From: a virus
Taxonomy: Duplodnaviria; Heunggongvirae; Uroviricota; Caudoviricetes
DNA: 8,264 bases
IMG/VR virus record: IMGVR_UViG_2713896782_000021
Direction: 5' to 3' (one strand)
Shown: one piece after another, positions 1 to 7,565 of the stretch
Numbering within the stretch: the stretch's first letter is position 1
How the letters are laid out: the number at the start of each line of letters is the position of its first letter
Program-made: the position numbers and the translations under genes
Notes under the pieces: generated by a model
Told to the model about the DNA's origin: nothing
What the model saw: only the letters and a program-made list of their open reading frames with translations
Databases searched by the model: none

Positions 1-148
1 CAGGAGAGCGCGCTGGCGTGCTGGGGAATCGACAGATAAGCAGAATATTTTGCTGAAAAATGACGTTGGCCAGCGCGGGCGGATAACACGAAATCCTGCG
101 AACTGGCAAAATGTAAGTGAATAAAGTTAGGCAGATTATTTCACGCAG

Positions 149-180
149 AGGCACCGTAATGGTGCCTTTGTCATTTCTGC
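149..180 (+). terminator. Candidate intrinsic terminator (hairpin plus U-rich tail)
   Basis: Perfect 7-bp stem AGGCACC (149-155), loop GTAAT, GGTGCCT (161-167), followed by TTGTCATTTCTG. The tail is only moderately T-rich, so this could be a tR'-like terminator after an upstream gene or just a stabilising hairpin. Confidence 0.3.
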
Positions 181-312
181 GCTTCGCACAAGCGTAAATA
201 AACCAAAGAACCTTTCAGGATGAGCCCTGGTGGATAACCGGCAGTGGTCTGGTTAACCCTCTTTGGGCTGGTTATTCCTGTGCGCAGGGTTCATCACTAA
301 AAGGAATCAACC

Positions 313-1008
313 ATGAAAGAGATGATTTCTGTCGATCATGAAATATCCATGAGTAGTCTGGATTTTCTGAATAACATTATTAATCCAGCCCGGGCAGAAG
401 CCGGAGAAGTCCCTCATGAACCGCGTAAGTTTCTTGCAAAAATTGAGGATGAGCTAGAGCTTGATGGAACCGGAAAAAAATTCCGGTTAAACAATAACCA
501 GACAAGAACGGCATACTATGATCTGGATTTTGACCAGATGATGCTCGTTGGCATGAGGGAGTCAAAGGCCGTTCGTCGTTCTGTGCTGGCAAGACTCAAA
601 GCGATGCATGGTATTCAGATCCCCCGGACTTTACCTGAGGCGTTGCGATTTGCGGCAAAACTGGCTGAACAGAAAGCAGTGCTGGAAAATCAACTGGCAA
701 TAGCAGCGCCGAAGGCTGAATTTGTTGATAACTATGTTGAAGCATCTGGTCTGATGGGATTCCGGGAAGTTGCTAAGTTACTCGGTATCAAAGAAACCGA
801 TTTCCGGCTGTTTTTGTTGGAGAACGGAATAATGTATCGCCTCGCTGGAAAAATGACGCCTTACTCGCATCACCTGGATGCGGGGCGGTTTAGCGTGAAA
901 ACGGGCGAGGCGGGCAATGGTCATGCTTTTACGCAGGTTAAATTCACCCCAAAAGGTGTTCAGTGGATTGCTGGTCTGCTTGCTGCATGGAGAGCTACCG
1001 CAGCATGA
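313..1008 (+). CDS. Phage antirepressor (AntA-like N-terminal domain + KilA-C / ANT C-terminal domain), 231 aa
   Basis: ATG at 313 with AAGGA 7 nt upstream. The C-terminal half (ALRFAAKLAEQKAVLENQLAIAAPKAEFVDNYVEASGLMGFREVAKLLGI...FTQVKFTPKGVQWIAGLL) matches the KilA-C antirepressor domain pattern as I recall it; the N-terminal half (YYDLDFDQMMLVGMRESKAVRRSVL) resembles AntA-type DNA-binding domains. Family assignment is from memory, not a search. Confidence 0.8.
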   Translation: MKEMISVDHEISMSSLDFLNNIINPARAEAGEVPHEPRKFLAKIEDELELDGTGKKFRLNNNQTRTAYYDLDFDQMMLVGMRESKAVRRSVLARLKAMHGIQIPRTLPEALRFAAKLAEQKAVLENQLAIAAPKAEFVDNYVEASGLMGFREVAKLLGIKETDFRLFLLENGIMYRLAGKMTPYSHHLDAGRFSVKTGEAGNGHAFTQVKFTPKGVQWIAGLLAAWRATAA

Positions 1009-1100
1009 AGATGATAAAAACGGACTGGAAATTTTTGCTGGTCTGGCTGATTCCGTTTTTATGGGTGGTTGCCCGGTTAATTACTGCTATTAAGGGGTAA
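1005..1100 (+). CDS. Hypothetical 31-aa single-helix membrane micropeptide (MKMIKTDWKFLLVWLIPFLWVVARLITAIKG)
   Basis: ATG overlaps the antirepressor stop in an ATGA arrangement (translational coupling), and the stop at 1098-1100 sits 2 nt before the next start. One strongly hydrophobic helix. Below the length cutoff of the ORF track; found by manual translation. No independent SD. Confidence 0.3.
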   Translation: MKMIKTDWKFLLVWLIPFLWVVARLITAIKG

Positions 1101-1102
1101 AG

Positions 1103-1234
1103 ATGTCAGACAAACTCATAATGCTGGCGAAGGGCCTTTGTGTAATCGTCGGTATTTCATTTTCACTAATGCTGGTTGTTCTTTTTCTTTCCATAACCTG
1201 GATGGCGTTGACTTCGGCAGGGCTGGTGGGGTGA
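1103..1234 (+). CDS. Hypothetical 43-aa single-helix membrane micropeptide (MSDKLIMLAKGLCVIVGISFSLMLVVLFLSITWMALTSAGLVG)
   Basis: Strong SD AAGGGG (1092-1097) 5 nt upstream of ATG 1103. One hydrophobic helix. Stop at 1232-1234 lies 11 nt before the Rz start. Found by manual translation. Confidence 0.45.
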   Translation: MSDKLIMLAKGLCVIVGISFSLMLVVLFLSITWMALTSAGLVG

Positions 1235-1245
1235 GCATAAACCGA

Positions 1246-1650
1246 ATGCTTTCCGCGTTNNNNNNNNNNNNNNNNNNNNNNNNNNNNNNNNNNNNNNNNN
1301 NNNNNNNNNCCGTTATTCTGCTGGTGGTCTGTGGTGCGCTTAGTCTGGGGCTGAATCATTACCGCGATAACGTCATCACCTACAAAGCGCAGCGCGATAA
1401 AAAAGCCAGAGAGCTGGAGCTGGCAAACGCAACCATTACTGATATGCAGGTGCGCCAGCGCGATGTTGCTGCGCTCGATGCAAAATACTCGAGGGAATTA
1501 GCCGATGCGAGAGCTGAAAATGAANNNNNNNNNNNNNNNNNNNNNNNNNNNNNNNNNNNNNNNNNNNNNNNNNNNNNNNNNNNNNNNNNNNNNNNNNNNN
1601 NNNNNNNNNNNNNGGCACAGGACTATATCCGCACTCAGTGCCTGAACTAA
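1246..1650 (+). CDS. Rz: Rz-family i-spanin (inner-membrane spanin subunit), about 134 aa; sequence interrupted by two N-masked runs
   Basis: The readable segment ([71 protein letters not shown]) is near-collinear with lambda Rz as I recall it ([57 protein letters not shown]). Start assigned to the in-frame ATG at 1246 just before the first N-run; the exact start is uncertain. C-terminus ...[11 protein letters not shown], stop at 1648-1650. Confidence 0.85.
1260..1309. other. Run of 50 ambiguous bases (N) inside the Rz 5' region
   Basis: Literal n characters in the sequence; the content cannot be known. Hides the Rz N-terminal/TM region. Confidence 1.
1525..1613. other. Run of 89 ambiguous bases (N) inside the Rz 3' region
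   Basis: Literal n characters; hides about 30 codons of Rz and the region where an embedded Rz1 o-spanin would be expected. Confidence 1.
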
Positions 1651-1951
1651 GTTTTGCTGATGCGCCGTATCGTCGCTGTATTCCCTCATTAACAGAGACC
1701 GCAGCCCGACAGGGAGACTCCTCTGCGCGAGTGTGCGGGGAGAATCAAAAACGATACGCACCGGGGTTTACCGCGTTAACGGAGCGCGGCGTTGTCCCCT
1801 CATGGTCGCTGGTTCGGTGCGATGGTGGAAGAAACCGGACGATGTGTTACCTCGCAAGACCTGTTATGTCATGTGTCTGATTTGTGATTTAAGTCGGATA
1901 ATTGTCGTTGCCATTAAGCAGAGGATTGATGGCCGACAGGGTGGCATTGTT

Positions 1952-1968
1952 AGAATAAGACTTATTCT
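1952..1968. promoter_or_regulatory. 17-bp perfect palindrome AGAATAAG-a-CTTATTCT, candidate operator about 15 bp upstream of the lipoprotein gene
   Basis: Reverse complement of 1961-1968 equals 1952-1959. Overlaps a weak candidate promoter (TTGATG 1926-1931, 19-bp spacer, TAGAAT 1951-1956). AT-rich dyad with a Fur-box-like flavour (about 12/19 to the consensus by eye); that resemblance is weak. Confidence 0.3.
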
Positions 1969-1982
1969 TATCTGTGCCGGGA

Positions 1983-2315
1983 ATGAAAATGAAAAGAAAT
2001 CTTCCGTTAATTATTTTGTTGTCTTCTCTGGTTATGGGCTGTACGCAACATAAAACAGATATGCCCCGACAGTTGGTTAAGGCATTACCACAATATCCGG
2101 CCTATGCAGCGGCAAATTATATAAAGGGACGGGTTGATGTGAAGTTTGATATTGGTGCTGATGGTACTGTCACCCGAATTGAGTTTATCCGTTCAGAGCC
2201 GCACCATCTGTTTGATGAGCAGGTTGTAAAGGCGATGGCAAAATGGCGATTTGAGAAGGACAGGCCGCGTAAAGGCGTGAAGAAAACGTTTATCTTTAGT
2301 CCTTCTGCACCCTGA
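1983..2315 (+). CDS. Lipoprotein consisting of a TonB C-terminal domain (TonB_C-like moron protein), about 110 aa
   Basis: Signal peptide MKMKRNLPLIILLSSLVMG followed by Cys (lipobox-like VMGC), with Thr at +2. The mature part aligns with the E. coli TonB C-terminal domain from memory: ours PQYPAYAAANYIKGRVDVKFDIGADGTVTRIEFIRSEPHHLFDEQVVKAMAKWRFE versus TonB [56 protein letters not shown]. No TonB N-terminal TM helix and no Pro-rich spacer. Alternative start ATG 1989 has better SD spacing (GGGA 1979-1982). Confidence 0.8.
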   Translation: MKMKRNLPLIILLSSLVMGCTQHKTDMPRQLVKALPQYPAYAAANYIKGRVDVKFDIGADGTVTRIEFIRSEPHHLFDEQVVKAMAKWRFEKDRPRKGVKKTFIFSPSAP

Positions 2316-2446
2316 TTATTTCATCAGAAATTAATTATCACTCTGTTGTTATTCTGTACATTCCGGCTGGGTAAGTCTTGTTCCGCCGGGTATGAAGATG
2401 AAATATTGTTGGAGGACAGTGGGTACCTGCTCCTGTAACCGAACGT

Positions 2447-2647
2447 TCATTTCTCGTTATTTGTCATGCTGGCCGGACGCAGATGCGTTGCATCTGTTGC
2501 CAGCCTTCTCCTGCAGGCTTCAATAACCCACGCTGAAAAGTTACCGGAACCTTTATGTTCAAGGGCGATATTGATCTGTTCAATCATGTGATTGGGGAAA
2601 CGGATATTGCGGGTTGTGGTTCTGCGGGTCCGGTTTTTCGATGACAT
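2447..2647 (-). CDS. Small basic ribbon-helix-helix-like protein (resembles YlcI / DUF3950-type prophage proteins), 66 aa
   Basis: Start chosen at the internal Met (MSSKNRTRRTTTRNIRFPNHMIEQINIALEHKGSGNFSAWVIEACRRRL...) because the - strand carries AAGGAA 7 nt upstream of that ATG. Basic N-tail, then a beta-strand-like RNIRFP and two helices, suggesting an RHH fold. Similarity to YlcI/DUF3950 is from memory and unverified. Confidence 0.65.
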   Translation of the reverse strand: MSSKNRTRRTTTRNIRFPNHMIEQINIALEHKGSGNFSAWVIEACRRRLATDATHLRPASMTNNEK

Positions 2648-2688
2648 ATTTATTTCCTTTACTGATTGCCATATGACGGGGATTTTAC

Positions 2689-3054
2689 ATGGCTGAGCTT
2701 CGTACACTCCAGAGCAGAATCAAAACACTGAATACCCGACGGGTGAATATTCTGAAGGGTGAACAGCGTCGTGTCAGTGGCAGTGCACGTGTTTCCCTCA
2801 AGCGTCATATCTGGCTCAGGGATGCCGGGCAGTGCTGTCTCTGTGGTCGTGTGGTTGACCTCTGTGACAGTGAACTCGATCACCGAATTGCACTTCAGTT
2901 CGGTGGTGGTAATGAGGAGACGAATCTCTGGACGCTCTGTACCGAATGCCATCGACAAAAGTCTGCTCGTGAAGCGGCGGGTGGTATGCCGGACCCGACG
3001 CTGCCGGAGGTGTCCGGAGGTAGTGGCAGAGCGGACGACATCATCGGACTGTAA
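2689..3054 (+). CDS. HNH endonuclease (terminase-associated), 121 aa
   Basis: SD GGGGA 6 nt upstream of ATG 2689. Motifs CCLCG (CxxC)...ELDHRIALQFGGGNEETNLWTLCTECH give a His-Asn-His core with a second Cys pair (CxxCH), the classic HNH zinc-finger nuclease. It sits immediately upstream of the cos-like region and terS, the usual position in HK97-like cos phages. Confidence 0.85.
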   Translation: MAELRTLQSRIKTLNTRRVNILKGEQRRVSGSARVSLKRHIWLRDAGQCCLCGRVVDLCDSELDHRIALQFGGGNEETNLWTLCTECHRQKSAREAAGGMPDPTLPEVSGGSGRADDIIGL

Positions 3055-3057
3055 CCC

Positions 3058-3116
3058 GAGCGGGGGGGTATCATCCGGCGTAAAAAACGATCGCTCCGGA
3101 CACCGCGCCCCCTCTC
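3058..3116. repeat. Imperfect inverted repeat GAGCGGGGG ... CCCCCTCTC flanking about 41 bp (candidate cosN-type symmetric element)
   Basis: 3058-3066 GAGCGGGGG versus reverse complement of 3108-3116 (GAGAGGGGG), 8/9 match. Located between the HNH stop and terS. Assignment as cosN is inference only. Confidence 0.25.
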
Positions 3117-3144
3117 ACGCAGAGAAAAAATTCCCGTTTCAGGG

Positions 3145-3271
3145 CAGTTAACATGTTAACTGGCTGCCCGGGCATTTTTGCGGTTTTTATCTTTATTATT
3201 CAGTTTGTTGTGCGGAAAAAATGTTAACAGGCTTTTTCAGCAAATGTTAACCAGGCAGCAGTTAACATTTG
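3145..3271. repeat. Cluster of GTTAAC-AT palindromic motifs (candidate cosB / TerS-binding or regulator sites)
   Basis: 18-bp perfect palindrome CAGTTAACATGTTAACTG (3145-3162); ATGTTAAC at 3221-3228; 11-bp inverted arms CAAATGTTAAC (3241-3251) and GTTAACATTTG (3261-3271) separated by 9 bp. Five GTTAAC hexamers in about 125 bp immediately upstream of terS. Confidence 0.6.
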
Positions 3272-3342
3272 CGGCATGAGACGCCGGGAAAAATGGGCTG
3301 AACCATACCCGGCTGAGTGCGTTCTGGACCCGGGAGGAGGCT

Positions 3343-3906
3343 GTGCTGACAACGCAAAAACGAAAATTTGCGCTGGCGCTCATGTCCGGGAAAAACAAAA
3401 CAGCGTCAGCCCTTGCCGCCGGTTATTCGGCGAAGACAGCCAGGGTTAAAGGCTCGCAGCTGGCAAAAGATCCGGAGGTGCTTGCGTTTATAGCCCGTAA
3501 ACAGTGCGAGACGGTGGAGGTGGATGAGGTTCCTGTTTATCGGCAGAAAAAATCAGAGCCGGAGGATAAACCCCGTCGCCGTGAGGCGGCTGCAATACCA
3601 CAGCCGGACGAAACAAATCCGGAGATGCCACCGCCCGTGGTGATATCTCCTGGTATTGAGTATATGGAGGACGGTCTTCCCGATCCGGTGAAAGCGATGG
3701 GGCGTCTTCTGGTGGAGAACATTAATACCGACCCCAGGCTGGCGCTGGATGCGGCTTATAAGCTGGCGCAGTTCACGCACCACAAAAAAGGGGATGCCGG
3801 TAAAAAATCGGCAAAAGGTGACGCGGCGAAAAAAGCGGCTAACCGTTTTGCGGTGCCACCACCACCCCGCCTGGTGGTGAATAATGATAATGAGGGCAAC
3901 GGATGA
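3343..3906 (+). CDS. terS: Terminase small subunit (P27-family-like), 187 aa
   Basis: GTG start with GGGAGGAGG upstream. N-terminus MLTTQKRKFALALMSGKNKTASALAAGYSAKTARVKGSQLAKDPEVLAFIARKQ fits the conserved TerS helix-turn-helix N-terminal pattern (AGYS..tA...gs.L). Lys/Ala-rich C-tail. Stop overlaps the terL ATG (ATGA). Confidence 0.85.
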   Translation: MLTTQKRKFALALMSGKNKTASALAAGYSAKTARVKGSQLAKDPEVLAFIARKQCETVEVDEVPVYRQKKSEPEDKPRRREAAAIPQPDETNPEMPPPVVISPGIEYMEDGLPDPVKAMGRLLVENINTDPRLALDAAYKLAQFTHHKKGDAGKKSAKGDAAKKAANRFAVPPPPRLVVNNDNEGNG

Positions 3907-5564
3907 TACCTGTGTGGAGCACGGCCTGCCCGGACTGGGCAGAGCGCCTGAAAAAGGGGCTGTCGATTATTCCGGCTCCGATTTATCCGGAGCAGGCCGC
4001 ACATGCCCTGGCGATTTTTAAACAACTGCGGATTGTGGATGCACCGGGCAGCCCGACGTTCGGGGAGTCCTGCGCACAGTGGGTGTTTGACCTGGTGGCG
4101 GCCCTGTTTGGCTCCTACGATGCGCAGACCGGTGTACGCCATATCAAGGAAGTTTTTATCCTTATCCCCAAGAAAAACAGCAAGTCCACGCTGGCTGCCG
4201 GGATCATGATGACGGCGCTGTTACTGAACTGGCGGCAGGCGGCGGGCTACACCATTCTGGCCCCGACCGTGGAGGTGGCGGCTAACGCCTTCAACCCTGC
4301 CAGGGATATGGTACGACGGGACGATGATCTGGATGACCTCTGTCAGGTGCAGACACATATCCGGACCATCACCCACAGGGTGACGGACACCACCCTGAAG
4401 GTGGTGGCTGCCGATCCGAATACGGTATCCGGTATCAAGTCCGTGGGGACGCTGATTGATGAACTGTGGTTATTTGGCAAGCAGTACAAAGCGGAGGACA
4501 TGTTACGTGAAGCCATAGGCGGCCTTGCCTCCCGCCCGGAAGGGTTTGTGGTGTATACGACCACCCAGTCGAATGAGCCGCCAGCCGGGGTGTTCAGACA
4601 GAAACTGCAGTACGCCCGGGATGTCCGTGACGGCAAAATTCATGATCCGCACTTTCTGCCGGTGATTTTTGAGCATCCTCCTGAAATGGTGGAAAGCGGG
4701 GCTCACCTGCTGATGGAAAACCTCGCCATGGTTAACCCGAATCTCGGTTATTCGGTGGATGAGGCTTTTCTGTACCGGGAGTACCGTAAAGCCCGGGAGG
4801 CTGGTGAGGAAGCATTTCGTGGCTTCATGTCAAAACATGCCAATGTGGAAATTGGTCTTGCCCTGCGTTCTGACCGCTGGGCGGGTGCGGATTTCTGGGA
4901 GCAGCAGGGCAGGCGCGTCAGCCTGGACGATATCCTGCAGCGCGCTGATGTGGTGACGGTGGGGATTGACGGCGGGGGCCTGGATGATCTGCTGGGAATG
5001 TACGTGATTGGCCGTGACAGGGAAACCCGCGAATGGCTGGGCTGGGGCCATGCCTGGGCGCATGAAACCGCGGTGGTCCGACGGAAGAGCGAGGCGTCCC
5101 GGTTTCAGGATCTTGTTGCCTGTGGAGATATGACCATTGTCCGGCGTGTCGGGGATGACACGGCGGAAGTGGCGGAATATGTGCGTCGCATTCATGAGGC
5201 TGAGTTACTGGACCATATCGGTATTGACCCGTCAGGGGTGGGGCAGATTCTGGATTCACTGGCGGAAGCCGGGATCCCCGACGGAATTGTGGTGGGGATA
5301 AGCCAGGGCTGGAAACTGGGCGGGGCCATTAAAACCACCGAGCGCAAACTGGCTGAAGGGGTGCTGGTGCATGGTGACCAGCCCCTGATGGCCTGGTGTG
5401 TCGGCAATGCCCGGGTGGAGCCTAAAGGTAACGCCATTCTTATCACCAAACAGGCCAGTGGACGGGGAAAAATTGACCCGCTGATGGCGCTGTTCAATGC
5501 GGTCTCCCTGATGTCCCTTAACCCGGAACCGAAAAAGAAAGAATATGCGGTTTTTTTCATATAA
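3903..5564 (+). CDS. terL: Terminase large subunit (HK97-type ATPase plus nuclease), 553 aa
   Basis: Deviant Walker A-like LIPKKNSKSTLAAG; Walker B-like LIDELWLFG; ITTAG-like VVYTTTQSNE; MVNPNLGYSV; C-terminal RNaseH-like nuclease motifs VTVGIDGGGLDDLLG and GRGKIDPLMALFNAV. Translationally coupled to terS. Confidence 0.9.
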   Translation: MIPVWSTACPDWAERLKKGLSIIPAPIYPEQAAHALAIFKQLRIVDAPGSPTFGESCAQWVFDLVAALFGSYDAQTGVRHIKEVFILIPKKNSKSTLAAGIMMTALLLNWRQAAGYTILAPTVEVAANAFNPARDMVRRDDDLDDLCQVQTHIRTITHRVTDTTLKVVAADPNTVSGIKSVGTLIDELWLFGKQYKAEDMLREAIGGLASRPEGFVVYTTTQSNEPPAGVFRQKLQYARDVRDGKIHDPHFLPVIFEHPPEMVESGAHLLMENLAMVNPNLGYSVDEAFLYREYRKAREAGEEAFRGFMSKHANVEIGLALRSDRWAGADFWEQQGRRVSLDDILQRADVVTVGIDGGGLDDLLGMYVIGRDRETREWLGWGHAWAHETAVVRRKSEASRFQDLVACGDMTIVRRVGDDTAEVAEYVRRIHEAELLDHIGIDPSGVGQILDSLAEAGIPDGIVVGISQGWKLGGAIKTTERKLAEGVLVHGDQPLMAWCVGNARVEPKGNAILITKQASGRGKIDPLMALFNAVSLMSLNPEPKKKEYAVFFI

Positions 5565-5627: not shown

Positions 5628-7565
5628 GTGACTCTTAAACGGGCCTGTTCCCTGCTGACGGTGAAATCCTTCAGTGAGGATGAACGGGTGATCACCGGGA
5701 TTGCGTCAACGCCTTCTCCGGATCGGGATGGTGACATCCTGGAGCCGGAGGGCGCGGAGTTTGGCAGTGCGATCCCGTTTCTCTGGCAGCATGACCATTC
5801 CCGCCCGGTGGGGCAGTGTACGGTGCGCCGGGTCAGCGAAGGGCTGGAAATCACGGCAACACTGGTGAAGCCCGTACCGGATATGCCGTCGCAACTGGCT
5901 GCCCGGCTGGATGAGGTCTGGGCGGCCATTAAGACCGGGCTGGTCAGGGGGCTGTCCGTGGGCTTCCGTCCCCATGAATACACCTTTCTGGACGGAGGCG
6001 GACTGCATTTTCTGCGCTGGGAACTGATGGAGGTGTCTGCCGTCACCGTGCCCGCGAATGCGGAATGCACCATCCGGACCATTAAATCTTACGACCGCCC
6101 GTTTTCTGCCGCGTCCGGCAACCGGAAACCGGTGGTGAAAATCGCATCTTCTGCCGGCGCTGCGGCACAGTCAACAACCGTTTTTCATAAGGAAAAGACC
6201 ATAATGAATATTGGCGAACAGATTAAAAGTTTTGAAAACAAGCGTGCAGCGCTGGCAGCCTCCCTTGAGGAGGTCATGACCAAAGCCGCAGAGGAAGGGC
6301 GCACGCTGGATGTGGAGGAGGAAGAGCATTACGACAACACCGCAGCGGAAATCCGTCAGGTGGATGCGCACCTGAAGCGCCTGCGTGAACTGGAAGCCGG
6401 TAAGGCCGCCACGGCGCAGCCGGTGAAACAGGCCGGTAACGGGAATGTGGCCGCGGTGGCTTCTGCGCCGGTGATCCGTGTGGAGCAGAAACTGGATAAG
6501 GGGATTGGCTTCGCCCGCTTTGCCAAATCGCTGGCTGCGGCTAAAGGCGTCCGATCTGAAGCCCTGGAAGTGGCCCGTCGTCAGTATCCGGATGACAGTC
6601 GTCTGCATCATGTCCTGAAATCGGCAGTGGGCGCGGGGACCACCACGGATCCGCAGTGGGCAGGCAGCCTGTCTGAATATCAGGAATACGCACAGGACTT
6701 TATTGATTACCTGCGTCCGCAGACCATTATCGGGCGATTTGGTCAGGGCGGGATCCCTGCACTTCGTCAGGTGCCATTCAATATCCGTGTGCACGCCCAG
6801 GTGTCCGGCGGTGCTGCCGGCTGGGTGGGTGAGGGTAAGGCAAAACCCCTGACGAAGTTTGATTTTGAATCCATCACCTTCAGTCATGCGAAGGTGTCGG
6901 CCATTGCGGTACTGACGGAAGAATTGATCCGTTTTTCCAGTCCGGCTGCTGATGCACTGGTCCGTAATGCGCTGGCGGAAGCGGTGGTGGCGCGTCTGGA
7001 TACAGACTTTGTGGACCCGAAAAAAGCCGCAGTGGCAGATGTCTCCCCGGCGTCCATCACCCATGATGTGAAGGGCACGGCATCAACCGGTAACCCGGAT
7101 GCGGATGCCGAGGCTGCGTTTGGACAGTTTGTGGCAGCAAACCTGCAGCCCACCGGTGCGGTCTGGCTGATGTCCAGCACCAATGCCCTGGCACTGTCCA
7201 TGCGTAAAAATGCGCTGGGTCAGAAGGAATACCCGGACATGACCCTGCTGGGTGGCTCCTTCCAGGGGCTGCCGGTGATTGTCTCCCAGTACGTGGGTGA
7301 CCAGCTGGTGCTGGTGAATGCCCCGGATATTTATCTGGCGGATGACGGCGGCGTGGCAGTGGATATGTCCCGCGAGGCATCACTGGAAATGCAGTCTGAG
7401 CCGGGCGGCGACAGTACCACGCCGTCCCCGGTGGAGCTGGTTTCCATGTTCCAGACAGGCAGCGTGGCCATCCGTGCGGAGCGCTGGATCAACTGGCGTC
7501 GTCGCCGTACTGCGGCGGTGGCGGTGATCACCGGAGTGAACTACGGCAGTGCGTCCGGCGGCTGA
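5628..7565 (+). CDS. Prohead protease (S78/HK97 family) fused in frame to major capsid protein (HK97 fold), 645 aa
   Basis: GTG start with AGGAGG 5 nt upstream. N-terminal about 180 aa carry S78 protease motifs (WQHDHSRPVG, GLSVGFRP, ELMEVSAVTVPANAEC). From about residue 193 the sequence is a typical capsid N-terminal delta/coiled-coil region (MNIGEQIKSFENKRAALAASLEEVMTKAAEEGRTLDVEEEE...) followed by the capsid body. No stop codon between the two domains. Confidence 0.85.
   Translation: MTLKRACSLLTVKSFSEDERVITGIASTPSPDRDGDILEPEGAEFGSAIPFLWQHDHSRPVGQCTVRRVSEGLEITATLVKPVPDMPSQLAARLDEVWAAIKTGLVRGLSVGFRPHEYTFLDGGGLHFLRWELMEVSAVTVPANAECTIRTIKSYDRPFSAASGNRKPVVKIASSAGAAAQSTTVFHKEKTIMNIGEQIKSFENKRAALAASLEEVMTKAAEEGRTLDVEEEEHYDNTAAEIRQVDAHLKRLRELEAGKAATAQPVKQAGNGNVAAVASAPVIRVEQKLDKGIGFARFAKSLAAAKGVRSEALEVARRQYPDDSRLHHVLKSAVGAGTTTDPQWAGSLSEYQEYAQDFIDYLRPQTIIGRFGQGGIPALRQVPFNIRVHAQVSGGAAGWVGEGKAKPLTKFDFESITFSHAKVSAIAVLTEELIRFSSPAADALVRNALAEAVVARLDTDFVDPKKAAVADVSPASITHDVKGTASTGNPDADAEAAFGQFVAANLQPTGAVWLMSSTNALALSMRKNALGQKEYPDMTLLGGSFQGLPVIVSQYVGDQLVLVNAPDIYLADDGGVAVDMSREASLEMQSEPGGDSTTPSPVELVSMFQTGSVAIRAERWINWRRRRTAAVAVITGVNYGSASGG
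6204..7565 (+). CDS. Major capsid protein, possible independent product from internal initiation (453 aa)
   Basis: In-frame ATG 6204 preceded by AAGGAA (6189-6194, 9-nt spacer); the encoded N-terminus MNIGEQIKSFENKRAAL is a canonical HK97-type capsid start. Whether it is actually used is an inference. Confidence 0.45.
   Translation: MNIGEQIKSFENKRAALAASLEEVMTKAAEEGRTLDVEEEEHYDNTAAEIRQVDAHLKRLRELEAGKAATAQPVKQAGNGNVAAVASAPVIRVEQKLDKGIGFARFAKSLAAAKGVRSEALEVARRQYPDDSRLHHVLKSAVGAGTTTDPQWAGSLSEYQEYAQDFIDYLRPQTIIGRFGQGGIPALRQVPFNIRVHAQVSGGAAGWVGEGKAKPLTKFDFESITFSHAKVSAIAVLTEELIRFSSPAADALVRNALAEAVVARLDTDFVDPKKAAVADVSPASITHDVKGTASTGNPDADAEAAFGQFVAANLQPTGAVWLMSSTNALALSMRKNALGQKEYPDMTLLGGSFQGLPVIVSQYVGDQLVLVNAPDIYLADDGGVAVDMSREASLEMQSEPGGDSTTPSPVELVSMFQTGSVAIRAERWINWRRRRTAAVAVITGVNYGSASGG

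Follow-up and report, generated by a model that had tools for sequence, protein, structure and literature searches.

In the Shiga toxin (Stx) phage 933W, the lysis genes are arranged in the order S, R, ant, Rz/Rz1, where S is of the pinholin type, R is an endolysin of the signal-anchor-release (SAR) type and ant is an antirepressor gene. A survey of 279 Stx phages revealed a SAR endolysin and a pinholin in almost all of them, ant in 126 and the spanin gene Rz in 277 (PMC8136144). Here, we analyzed the corresponding locus in an 8,264-nucleotide (nt) stretch of DNA from a Caudoviricetes virus (IMG/VR record IMGVR_UViG_2713896782_000021), hereafter referred to as the window, in which two small hydrophobic open reading frames (ORFs) of 31 and 43 amino acids (aa) are located between ant and Rz. 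The gene calls given below were obtained from the ORF list and the sequence.

Phage 21 contains the same functional parts as this locus, and its S (PF04971), Rz and Rz1 belong to the same Pfam families. However, R and Rz of phage 21 overlap by 4 nt, with neither ant nor a micro-ORF, and R of the window is of the 177-aa Qin/rrrQ type. Small membrane proteins that adjust release or timing in SAR-endolysin systems have been described in two other phages, namely Mu releasin gp25 (DUF2730) and P1 LydC/LydD (PMC9239132, PMC9025707). Releasin is a membrane-tethered cytoplasmic protein composed of an N-terminal transmembrane domain (TMD) and a DUF2730 cytoplasmic domain (PMC9239132). The two peptides of the window are similar to antiholins, Mu releasin and LydC/LydD in size, membrane location and genomic context, but share no sequence or profile similarity with them, and unlike releasin they contain no cytoplasmic domain.

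Upon comparison with 933W, we found a homologous small ORF (48-49 aa, approximately 76% nucleotide identity) in the gap between ant and Rz of that phage, together with several differences. In particular, ant of 933W encodes a 189-aa Bro-N-type protein, whereas ant of the window encodes a 231-aa KilAC protein, and the window contains the 31-aa ORF as an extra ORF between ant and the 43-aa ORF. The 43-aa ORF has its own ATG and Shine-Dalgarno (SD) site in the window, while the start of its 933W counterpart overlaps ant; downstream, a lipoprotein gene with a TonB C-terminal domain is present instead of bor. The E. coli homologues XECs191 and EDL933_1392 and the family phrog_4906 represent the same family at the same position, directly upstream of Rz. 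Compared with XECs191, the window allele lacks the N-terminal extension of 5-6 residues and differs at approximately a quarter of the residues. This locus does not represent a system of a new kind: RefSeq, PHROGs, the updated EDL933 annotation and a ribosome profiling (RIBOseq) catalogue already include the 43-aa ORF, and the 31-aa ORF is listed at NCBI as a 'membrane protein'.

Gene order between the endolysin and the spanin

The window contains the distal half of an ordinary Stx-type lambdoid late/lysis operon with the order S, (YdfR), R, ant, 31-aa ORF, 43-aa ORF, Rz/Rz1. Over positions 1-2400, its unmasked bases were 100% identical to those of a prophage found in E. coli O111 and related Shiga toxin-producing E. 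coli (STEC) genomes, and the identity to Stx1a-converting phages and phage Lys8385Vzw was 98%. The annotated relatives encode, in order, a class II holin, (YdfR/DUF1327), a lysozyme, an antirepressor, a 43-aa hypothetical protein and the 'lysis protein' Rz, followed by a TonB family protein, YlcI/YnfO, HNH and terminase; YdfR was located between S and R in only some of them.

The initial annotation had described the spanin gene as lacking an adjacent holin or endolysin, and this had to be revised. The first 39 bases of the window (positions 1-39, plus strand) are the 3' end of R and encode ...QESALACWGIDR*, which is the C-terminus of the annotated 177-aa lysozyme R and is identical in loci L001, L002, L004 and L006 (labels of this form denote the loci fetched for comparison). 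The full-length R homologue matched PF00959 (Phage_lysozyme) and contained an N-terminal hydrophobic SAR-like segment, and S of the relatives is a P21-type pinholin (PF04971). Upstream of this position, L001, L002 and L003 (98-100% identity to the window) contain complete S (PF04971) and R (PF00959) genes. Hence, Rz is not an orphan spanin gene; the window merely begins at the endolysin end, and the orphan look is an artefact of the window edge and the masked bases. The remaining part of the earlier description was confirmed, as neither a holin nor an endolysin lies between the antirepressor and Rz. The alternative offered with it, that both genes are located upstream with ant inserted between R and Rz as in Stx-type phages, was borne out by the gene order of the relatives, whose upstream flanks carry a pinholin S and a SAR-type R. 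With these two genes upstream and an antirepressor between R and Rz, the cassette is of the Stx/933W type.

The ant gene (positions 313-1008, plus strand; 231 aa) matched PF03374 (KilAC, E = 2.7e-28) and phrog_63 (E = 2.9e-58), is named antirepressor by the Prokaryotic Genome Annotation Pipeline (PGAP) and GenBank, and is a moron placed between R and Rz. The insertion sequence IS1203 interrupts ant in the O111 genomes with 100% identity to the window (L001 4313-6321, corresponding to window 313-1008); the ant gene of the window itself is intact. We also observed a stable 11-bp hairpin at 145-171 (GCAGAGGCACC-GUAAU-GGUGCCUUUGU) followed by a U-rich tract in the R-ant spacer (40-312). With a folding energy of -26.1 kcal/mol (z = -3.2; 0 of 200 shuffles as stable), this hairpin resembles an intrinsic terminator between R and ant, and it was not flagged by the consensus scan. 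Promoter and terminator scans of positions 1-2500 revealed no excess over shuffles, and an Rfam search of positions 1-3400 gave no match; since all of these genes also lie on the late strand, their expression would be expected from the Q-antiterminated late transcript.

Rz (i-spanin; positions 1246-1650, plus strand) is broken by two N-runs. The Rz identity proposed initially was supported by a PF03245 match on the unmasked part (1312-1524; E = 7e-13), and the full copy in L001, which is identical to the window across the unmasked part of the compared stretch, matched PF03245 (E = 1.9e-49) and phrog_13 (E = 1.7e-72). The N-terminal transmembrane segment of Rz gave a Kyte-Doolittle window of 2.41. 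Alignment with L001 and L002 showed that the 50 N at 1260-1309 replace approximately 2 nt and that the 89 N at 1525-1613 replace approximately 191 nt, in both cases as judged against the otherwise identical E2855 sequence; both length differences are multiples of three, and the reading frame is kept. Because the N-runs do not preserve length, the Rz protein that appears to contain 134 aa in the window is really 152 aa in otherwise identical genomes. The second N-run covers nearly all of a presumed Rz1 gene (o-spanin lipoprotein; start at positions 1520-1613, plus strand), which is embedded in the +1 frame of Rz and of which only the ATG at 1520 is visible in the window. In L001, the corresponding ORF (6770-6955, beginning with MRELKMKLCVLMLPLVVSAC) encodes 61 aa, matched PF06085 (Rz1, E = 7.7e-21) and contains LVVSAC. 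In the Rz searches, MW057783.1 (Campylobacter phage CJLB-4) matched with the same score and position as phage lambda, and this record is perhaps a lambda contamination or mislabelled.

We recovered 160 R-Rz intervals, which comprised 75 distinct sequences of 435-2519 nt. Micropeptide homologues accompanied Rz in other prophages, and the 43-aa ORF was found in all loci examined; its presence in all 160 intervals is partly a selection effect, as most of them were retrieved because they matched one of the two peptides. The 43-aa stop and the Rz start were 11 nt apart, or 7 nt apart in L007 and L008. Exceptions were L027 and L053, in which a methylase gene lies between the 43-aa ORF and Rz, and L004-type loci, which have extra micro-ORFs. 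The intervals had several layouts. In addition to the layout of the window (R, KilAC ant, 31 aa, 43 aa, Rz) and that of the 933W type (R, Bro-N-type ant, 48/49 aa, Rz), we found R, 31 aa, 43 aa, Rz; R, 31 aa, 43 aa, 28 aa, Rz; and R, a 60-aa phrog_1115 ORF, 43 aa, Rz. In rare layouts, the 43-aa ORF was separated from Rz by a DNA methylase gene, ant was interrupted by IS1203, or an IS66 element was present.

The methylase genes just mentioned are DNA methyltransferase-like genes on IMG/VR contigs (L027 1376-2143 and L053 3138-4073), and their insertion indicated that the junction between the 43-aa ORF and Rz also accepts morons. Sister prophages carried further tiny transmembrane ORFs in the R-Rz interval (L004 2294-2380; L006 2304-2486; L090 and L091). 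Among the small ORFs of the sister prophages, the 28-aa ORF abuts Rz and is called by PGAP (WP_032140280.1), and the 60-aa ORF belongs to phrog_1115/4493/3246.

In phage 21, ST64B, HK140 and S149, R overlaps Rz (or an Rz-like gene) by 4 nt and no other gene intervenes, and the same overlap without a micro-ORF was found in a Klebsiella phage, Stx2 phage 1717 and K-12 Qin. Accordingly, the opened R-Rz junction is the derived state. The opened junction is an accessory-gene insertion site, having received ant genes of two unrelated types as well as DNA methylases and a number of tiny membrane ORFs. As the micro-ORFs are absent from phage 21, HK140, ST64B and K-12 Qin, the peptides are accessory and dispensable for pinholin/SAR-endolysin/spanin lysis as such. 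A tie between the 43-aa peptide and the 177-aa type of R was considered and rejected, because K-12 Qin contains that R overlapping a DUF2514 Rz-like gene with no micro-ORF. For Qin, the main text of a K-12 small-protein ribosome-profiling preprint names only unrelated small proteins.

The two hydrophobic open reading frames

The initial annotation had placed Rz after two tiny hydrophobic ORFs chained to the antirepressor, and its coordinates and junctions proved to be correct. The 31-aa single-helix micro-ORF (MKMIKTDWKFLLVWLIPFLWVVARLITAIKG; positions 1005-1100, plus strand) was identified from the ORF list and the sequence, and its ATG overlaps the ant stop as ATGA. The 43-aa ORF (MSDKLIMLAKGLCVIVGISFSLMLVVLFLSITWMALTSAGLVG; positions 1103-1234, plus strand), which encodes a predicted single-pass membrane micropeptide and is supported by phrog_4906 and a PGAP coding sequence, begins 2 nt past the 31-aa stop. 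The ATG of Rz (1246) is located 11 nt past the 43-aa stop. The final codons of the 31-aa ORF (AAG GGG TAA) form the SD site of the 43-aa ORF. Similarly, the sole SD-like element of Rz (GGUGGGGUG; -6.0 to -6.4 kcal/mol, 9-12 nt before the ATG) sits within the last codons of the 43-aa ORF ('GLVG*'). With stops and starts that overlap or nearly abut, and with the next SD site in the end of each ORF, the chain ant, 31 aa, 43 aa, Rz appears to be set up for coupled translation. Coupled ORFs of compact phage operons, such as the R/Rz ATGA overlap, have the same abutting stops and starts and the same downstream SD inside the upstream coding sequence. In the window, however, the upstream ORFs encode conserved hydrophobic peptides and are not segments of a large gene for an enzyme, and their coupling is a prediction. 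Among the 105 ORFs with at least 25 aa in the six frames of the window, the 31-aa and 43-aa peptides are the two most hydrophobic, with best 19-aa Kyte-Doolittle windows of 2.77 and 2.26.

The 43-aa ORF is very probably a real gene. It matched phrog_4906 over residues 1-43 (E = 6.6e-24) and is annotated by PGAP as the hypothetical protein WP_001280923.1. The family member EDL933_1392 is annotated beside Rz in EDL933 (PMC4765031), and the homologue XECs191 of E. coli O157:H7 Sakai was reported as a translated novel gene, with an RNA level of 30.0 reads per kilobase per million (RPKM), a footprint RPKM of 12.6 and a ribosome coverage value (RCV) of 0.43 in lysogeny broth (LB), and with a predicted inner-membrane location and one transmembrane (TM) helix (PMC5597208). 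The region of the 43-aa ORF was found at 4593 places in 1698 of the 5426 complete E. coli genomes, nearly always annotated as 'hypothetical protein' beside 'lysis protein', and in 276 phage records, mostly of Stx phages, with approximately 76% nucleotide identity. The initial annotation had considered both ORFs to be below gene-caller length and easily missed; this was true of the 31-aa ORF and of old phage records such as that of 933W, but not of the 43-aa ORF in general, which RefSeq/PGAP calls routinely.

The 43-aa family does not extend beyond E. coli and its phages and has a patchy distribution among lambdoid phages, and all 70 homologous clusters were from E. coli. A profile search of 1.84 billion representatives for distant homologues yielded 27 matches, all of which were members of the same family or fragments of them. 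When one genome per species was searched, we obtained a single match, a 328-bp contig labelled Xanthomonas pisi (L089; NZ_JPLE01000251.1), which is probably contamination.

From approximately 180 fetched loci, we obtained 26 distinct nucleotide alleles of the 43-aa ORF, and every one of them was intact, with exactly 43 codons plus a stop and no indels. The pairwise Nei-Gojobori ratio of nonsynonymous to synonymous substitution rates (dN/dS) was 0.48 in frame, compared with 0.87 and 1.07 in the other sense frames, and was 0.24-0.41 for the most divergent allele pairs. In-frame substitutions were the most conservative of all six frames; the mean BLOSUM62 score of differing residues was -0.07, compared with -1.34 and -0.67 in the other sense frames. 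The start of the 43-aa ORF also showed the strongest anti-SD pairing of the starts in this region, from -8.2 (window) to -11.3 kcal/mol. This start has been achieved in three ways. In the first, the SD of the ORF lies inside the end of the 31-aa ORF; in the second, the ORF follows the 60-aa ORF and has its own SD, AAGGGAGGA (-11.3 kcal/mol). In the third, which is the 933W type, the start overlaps the Bro-N-type ant as TGATG with an extension of 5-6 codons, and the former ATG is now ATA in these alleles.

In agreement with the single helix named in the initial annotation, AlphaFold2 with the family alignment predicted one helix for the 43-aa peptide (residues 2-38; predicted local distance difference test (pLDDT) score of 89). 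The peptide contains K4 and K10, followed by an uncharged hydrophobic stretch of 30 residues, with no charge beyond residue 10. Because both lysines are on the N side of this uncharged stretch, the peptide is predicted to be an N-in/C-out single-pass inner-membrane helix. The nearly invariant core consists of V14, G17, S19, F20, S21, L22, M23, L24 and V25, and contains a G17-x-S19-x-S21 face. In the manner of small-xxx-small motifs, this G-x-S-x-S face could accommodate specific helix packing.

The 31-aa ORF occurs less often than the 43-aa ORF and its support is weaker; even so, we consider it rather likely to be a real gene. A homology search with a 45-aa upstream-extended frame showed that it is named 'membrane protein' (31 aa) in a few NCBI records (P0071), and it is unannotated in most genomes. 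Its sole family match was a weak one to phrog_6632 (1e-4); a tblastn match in Salmonella phage SEN34 was dismissed as chance, being weak and located in the baseplate region. The ORF was accompanied by the KilAC ant in 226 genomes and occurred without any ant in approximately 623 genomes (homologue loci L004, L090 and L091), where it begins with seven different residues (MISQLPN...) and is preceded by a GGGAG SD of its own. These differing N-termini place the ant insertion junction inside the 5' end of the 31-aa ORF, where a start that overlaps the ant stop either arose or was kept. Over the 24 codons shared by the two types, 13 nt differ, half of them synonymously, and dN/dS was 0.22 in frame compared with 0.8 and 1.2 off frame (single pair, p = 0.05). 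Of the IMG/VR contigs with the no-ant allele, 86 contain it in intact form, whereas in 5 a TTA-to-TGA change cuts it to 24 aa. Part of the conservation of the 31-aa ORF may be explained by the SD of the 43-aa ORF in its final codons.

Possible roles of the peptides

We lean, with modest confidence, towards the interpretation that the two peptides are single-pass inner-membrane accessory peptides of the late operon and that the 43-aa ORF additionally feeds ribosomes into Rz. The Q-antiterminated late transcript would run through R into ant, and ribosomes finishing ant would restart at the overlapping ATGA of the 31-aa ORF, whose final codons would supply the strong SD for the 43-aa ORF. The 43-aa ORF would in turn replace the ancestral R-to-Rz coupling and pass ribosomes to Rz, while its product would insert N-in/C-out and probably act as a dispensable membrane-level modulator of the pinholin/SAR-endolysin/spanin pathway. 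The parts of this interpretation differ in strength. A contribution of the 43-aa ORF to Rz translation is suggested tentatively by the junctions, and a role of the peptide in lysis timing is possible, although rather doubtful. A role as an accessory lysis modulator in the broader sense is plausible from the genomic context and from the precedent of Mu releasin and P1 LydC/LydD.

Several observations weigh against this interpretation. The homology of neither peptide points to a lysis-regulator, holin, antiholin, releasin, spanin or toxin family; no Pfam, NCBIfam or PADLOC match was obtained for either one, and their PHROG matches were to families of unknown function only. Constraint on the 43-aa ORF is only moderate, and the antisense frame that shares its wobble positions is open in all alleles with a dN/dS of 0.55. 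In contrast to the variable flanks, nucleotides 46-75 of this ORF (window 1148-1177, GTCGGYATTTCATTTTCACTAATGCTGGTT) hardly differ between alleles even at synonymous sites, which could reflect nucleotide-level constraint or recent spread. The divergent paralogue in L179 showed a dN/dS of 0.8-0.9 against the window allele, which corresponds to relaxed constraint, and the RIBOseq signal of XECs191 was low and came from an uninduced lysogen. For the 31-aa ORF, independent alleles are few and one lineage is truncated. With respect to coupling, Rz has the SD-like element of its own described above and perhaps does not require it, and RNA structure occluding the Rz start was not significant. The same was true of the starts of the 31-aa and 43-aa ORFs (z = -0.26 and -0.42 for the structures tested at the 31-aa, 43-aa and Rz starts). 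The L179 paralogue is an extra divergent 43-aa copy (MSRKLIMLGEILWVIVCISFSATLIALLLSMAWMTLNSAGLVG) in a 702-nt R-Rz interval on the minus strand, directly upstream of Rz and besides the normal copy.

Comparison with families of small membrane proteins gave uniformly negative results. Class II holins typically contain at least two TMDs and a charged C-terminal tail, whereas each peptide had a single helix, no such tail and no Pfam or PHROG holin match at E <= 1. Alignment of the 43-aa family with S by hhalign gave a probability of 0.1%, and an origin of the 43-aa ORF from S, Rz or the 31-aa peptide was rejected at hhalign probabilities of at most 0.2%. The searches revealed no DUF2730 match, and neither peptide has an extramembrane domain of the kind found in releasin. 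For type I membrane toxins (such as Hok, Ldr and TisB), there was no Pfam or NCBIfam match and no Rfam antitoxin RNA, and no promoter-like site was found on the minus strand over 1005-1245. PADLOC, which holds described systems only, assigned no defence family to either peptide or to ant.

The peptides, which are conserved and probably translated, could instead be dedicated lysis-timing regulators, either antiholins or modulators of SAR-endolysin release, with the coupling to Rz being incidental; lysis-timing factors had been the second alternative of the initial annotation. In such a scheme, the helix would bind the glycine zipper of pinholin TMD2, the SAR segment of R, which is rich in Gly and Ala, or the TMD of Rz, and would thereby delay or sharpen triggering. 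The location in the lysis cassette of the late operon beside membrane-acting partners is consistent with this scheme, as are the near-invariant core with its small-x-small-x-small face, the association of the 43-aa family with a P21-type pinholin and a SAR endolysin (PMC8136144), and the precedents of Mu releasin gp25 (PMC9239132) and P1 LydC/LydD (PMC9025707). However, the family tests gave no sequence or profile likeness to holins, antiholins or releasins, and the peptide has no cytoplasmic domain such as that of releasin. The peptides are missing from phage 21, in which pinholin, SAR endolysin and spanin follow the same logic, and from K-12 Qin, whose R is of the same 177-aa type; the dN/dS is only approximately 0.5 and the paralogue is relaxed. 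We therefore consider dedicated regulators to be fairly unlikely.

The opposite possibility is that the ORFs act in cis only, keeping ribosomes on the late mRNA and delivering them to Rz after insertions had parted Rz from R, while the peptides themselves are functionless and hydrophobic by accident of origin. Such a relay would fit the ancestral 4-nt R/Rz overlap, the chain junctions, all of which are overlaps or gaps of at most 11 nt with the next SD encoded in the final codons of each ORF, and the coincidence of the conserved C-terminal 'GLVG*' with the SD-like element of Rz. The moderate constraint and the core that is invariant at synonymous sites too are also consistent with it. A relay, however, needs neither a fixed length of 43 codons nor a kept TM helix nor frame-specific constraint, and the conservative sense-frame substitutions described above are not in its favor. 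Furthermore, the ORF is kept where a methylase parts it from Rz (L027 and L053) and is duplicated in L179. An exclusively cis-acting role thus appears distinctly improbable, and we prefer the interpretation in which the peptides themselves are accessory membrane components.

It is very unlikely that the peptides are morons with a role unrelated to lysis, such as superinfection exclusion or altered host membrane physiology. The R-Rz interval is indeed a site of moron insertion, as shown by its two types of ant, its methylases and its IS elements, the family is patchily distributed among lambdoid phages and specific to E. coli, and low-level footprints were present in the uninduced lysogen. Nevertheless, the ORFs have no promoter-like site of their own and no PADLOC match, they are tightly chained to late genes on the late strand, and their expression in the lysogen is at the level expected from read-through or spontaneous induction.

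Finally, the ORFs could hardly be frames left open by chance in an intergenic segment that spread recently, or the shadow of a gene on the opposite strand, even though there are many near-identical copies from recent spread of the module and the wobble-sharing antisense frame is open. The similar dN/dS of that frame arises because the wobble positions are shared, so that dN/dS alone does not choose the strand; the sense strand is favored by the conserved start and stop, the strongest local SD, the hydrophobic TM helix, the three start solutions, strand-specific RIBOseq and membership in PGAP and PHROG sets. An antisense gene was rejected, as its ORF ranges in length from 56 to 173 codons, its start is not conserved, L004 contains no start codon for it and nothing else speaks in its favor.

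Downstream genes and relevance to Stx phages

Downstream of Rz, the window contains a lipoprotein gene with a TonB C-terminal domain (113 aa; positions 1974-2315, plus strand; PF03544), which occupies the bor position of lambda and 933W on the forward strand. Phage 21 has a similar TonB-C-domain gene downstream of bor. Profile matches further identified a DUF3950 gene (2447-2707, minus strand), an HNH endonuclease (2689-3054, plus strand), the small terminase (3343-3906, plus strand), the large terminase (3903-5564, plus strand) and a protease-capsid fusion (5628-7565, plus strand). In the last of these, the prohead protease (Peptidase_S78) and major capsid (Phage_capsid) domains are fused within one 645-aa ORF.

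The finding serves mainly as an annotation correction, since the records of 933W and like reference phages omit the 43-aa gene. This ORF is present in the lysis cassette of most Stx-converting phages and in approximately one in three complete E. coli genomes, where a single genome often carries more than one copy. A more speculative proposal, which we regard as unlikely, is that the at least four unrelated single-helix micropeptide families at the opened R-Rz junction of E. coli lambdoid prophages with a pinholin and a SAR endolysin (the 31-, 43- and 28-aa families and the 60-aa phrog_4493/phrog_1115 family) constitute a new class of membrane-level lysis modulators. If this were true, such modulators, for example TMD decoys for the pinholin glycine zipper, the SAR helix or the i-spanin anchor, could tune the timing of Stx-phage lysis and hence of toxin release. 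As Shiga toxin exits via phage-mediated lysis, its release would be influenced by any accessory factor that alters the timing of lysis or the expression of the spanin.

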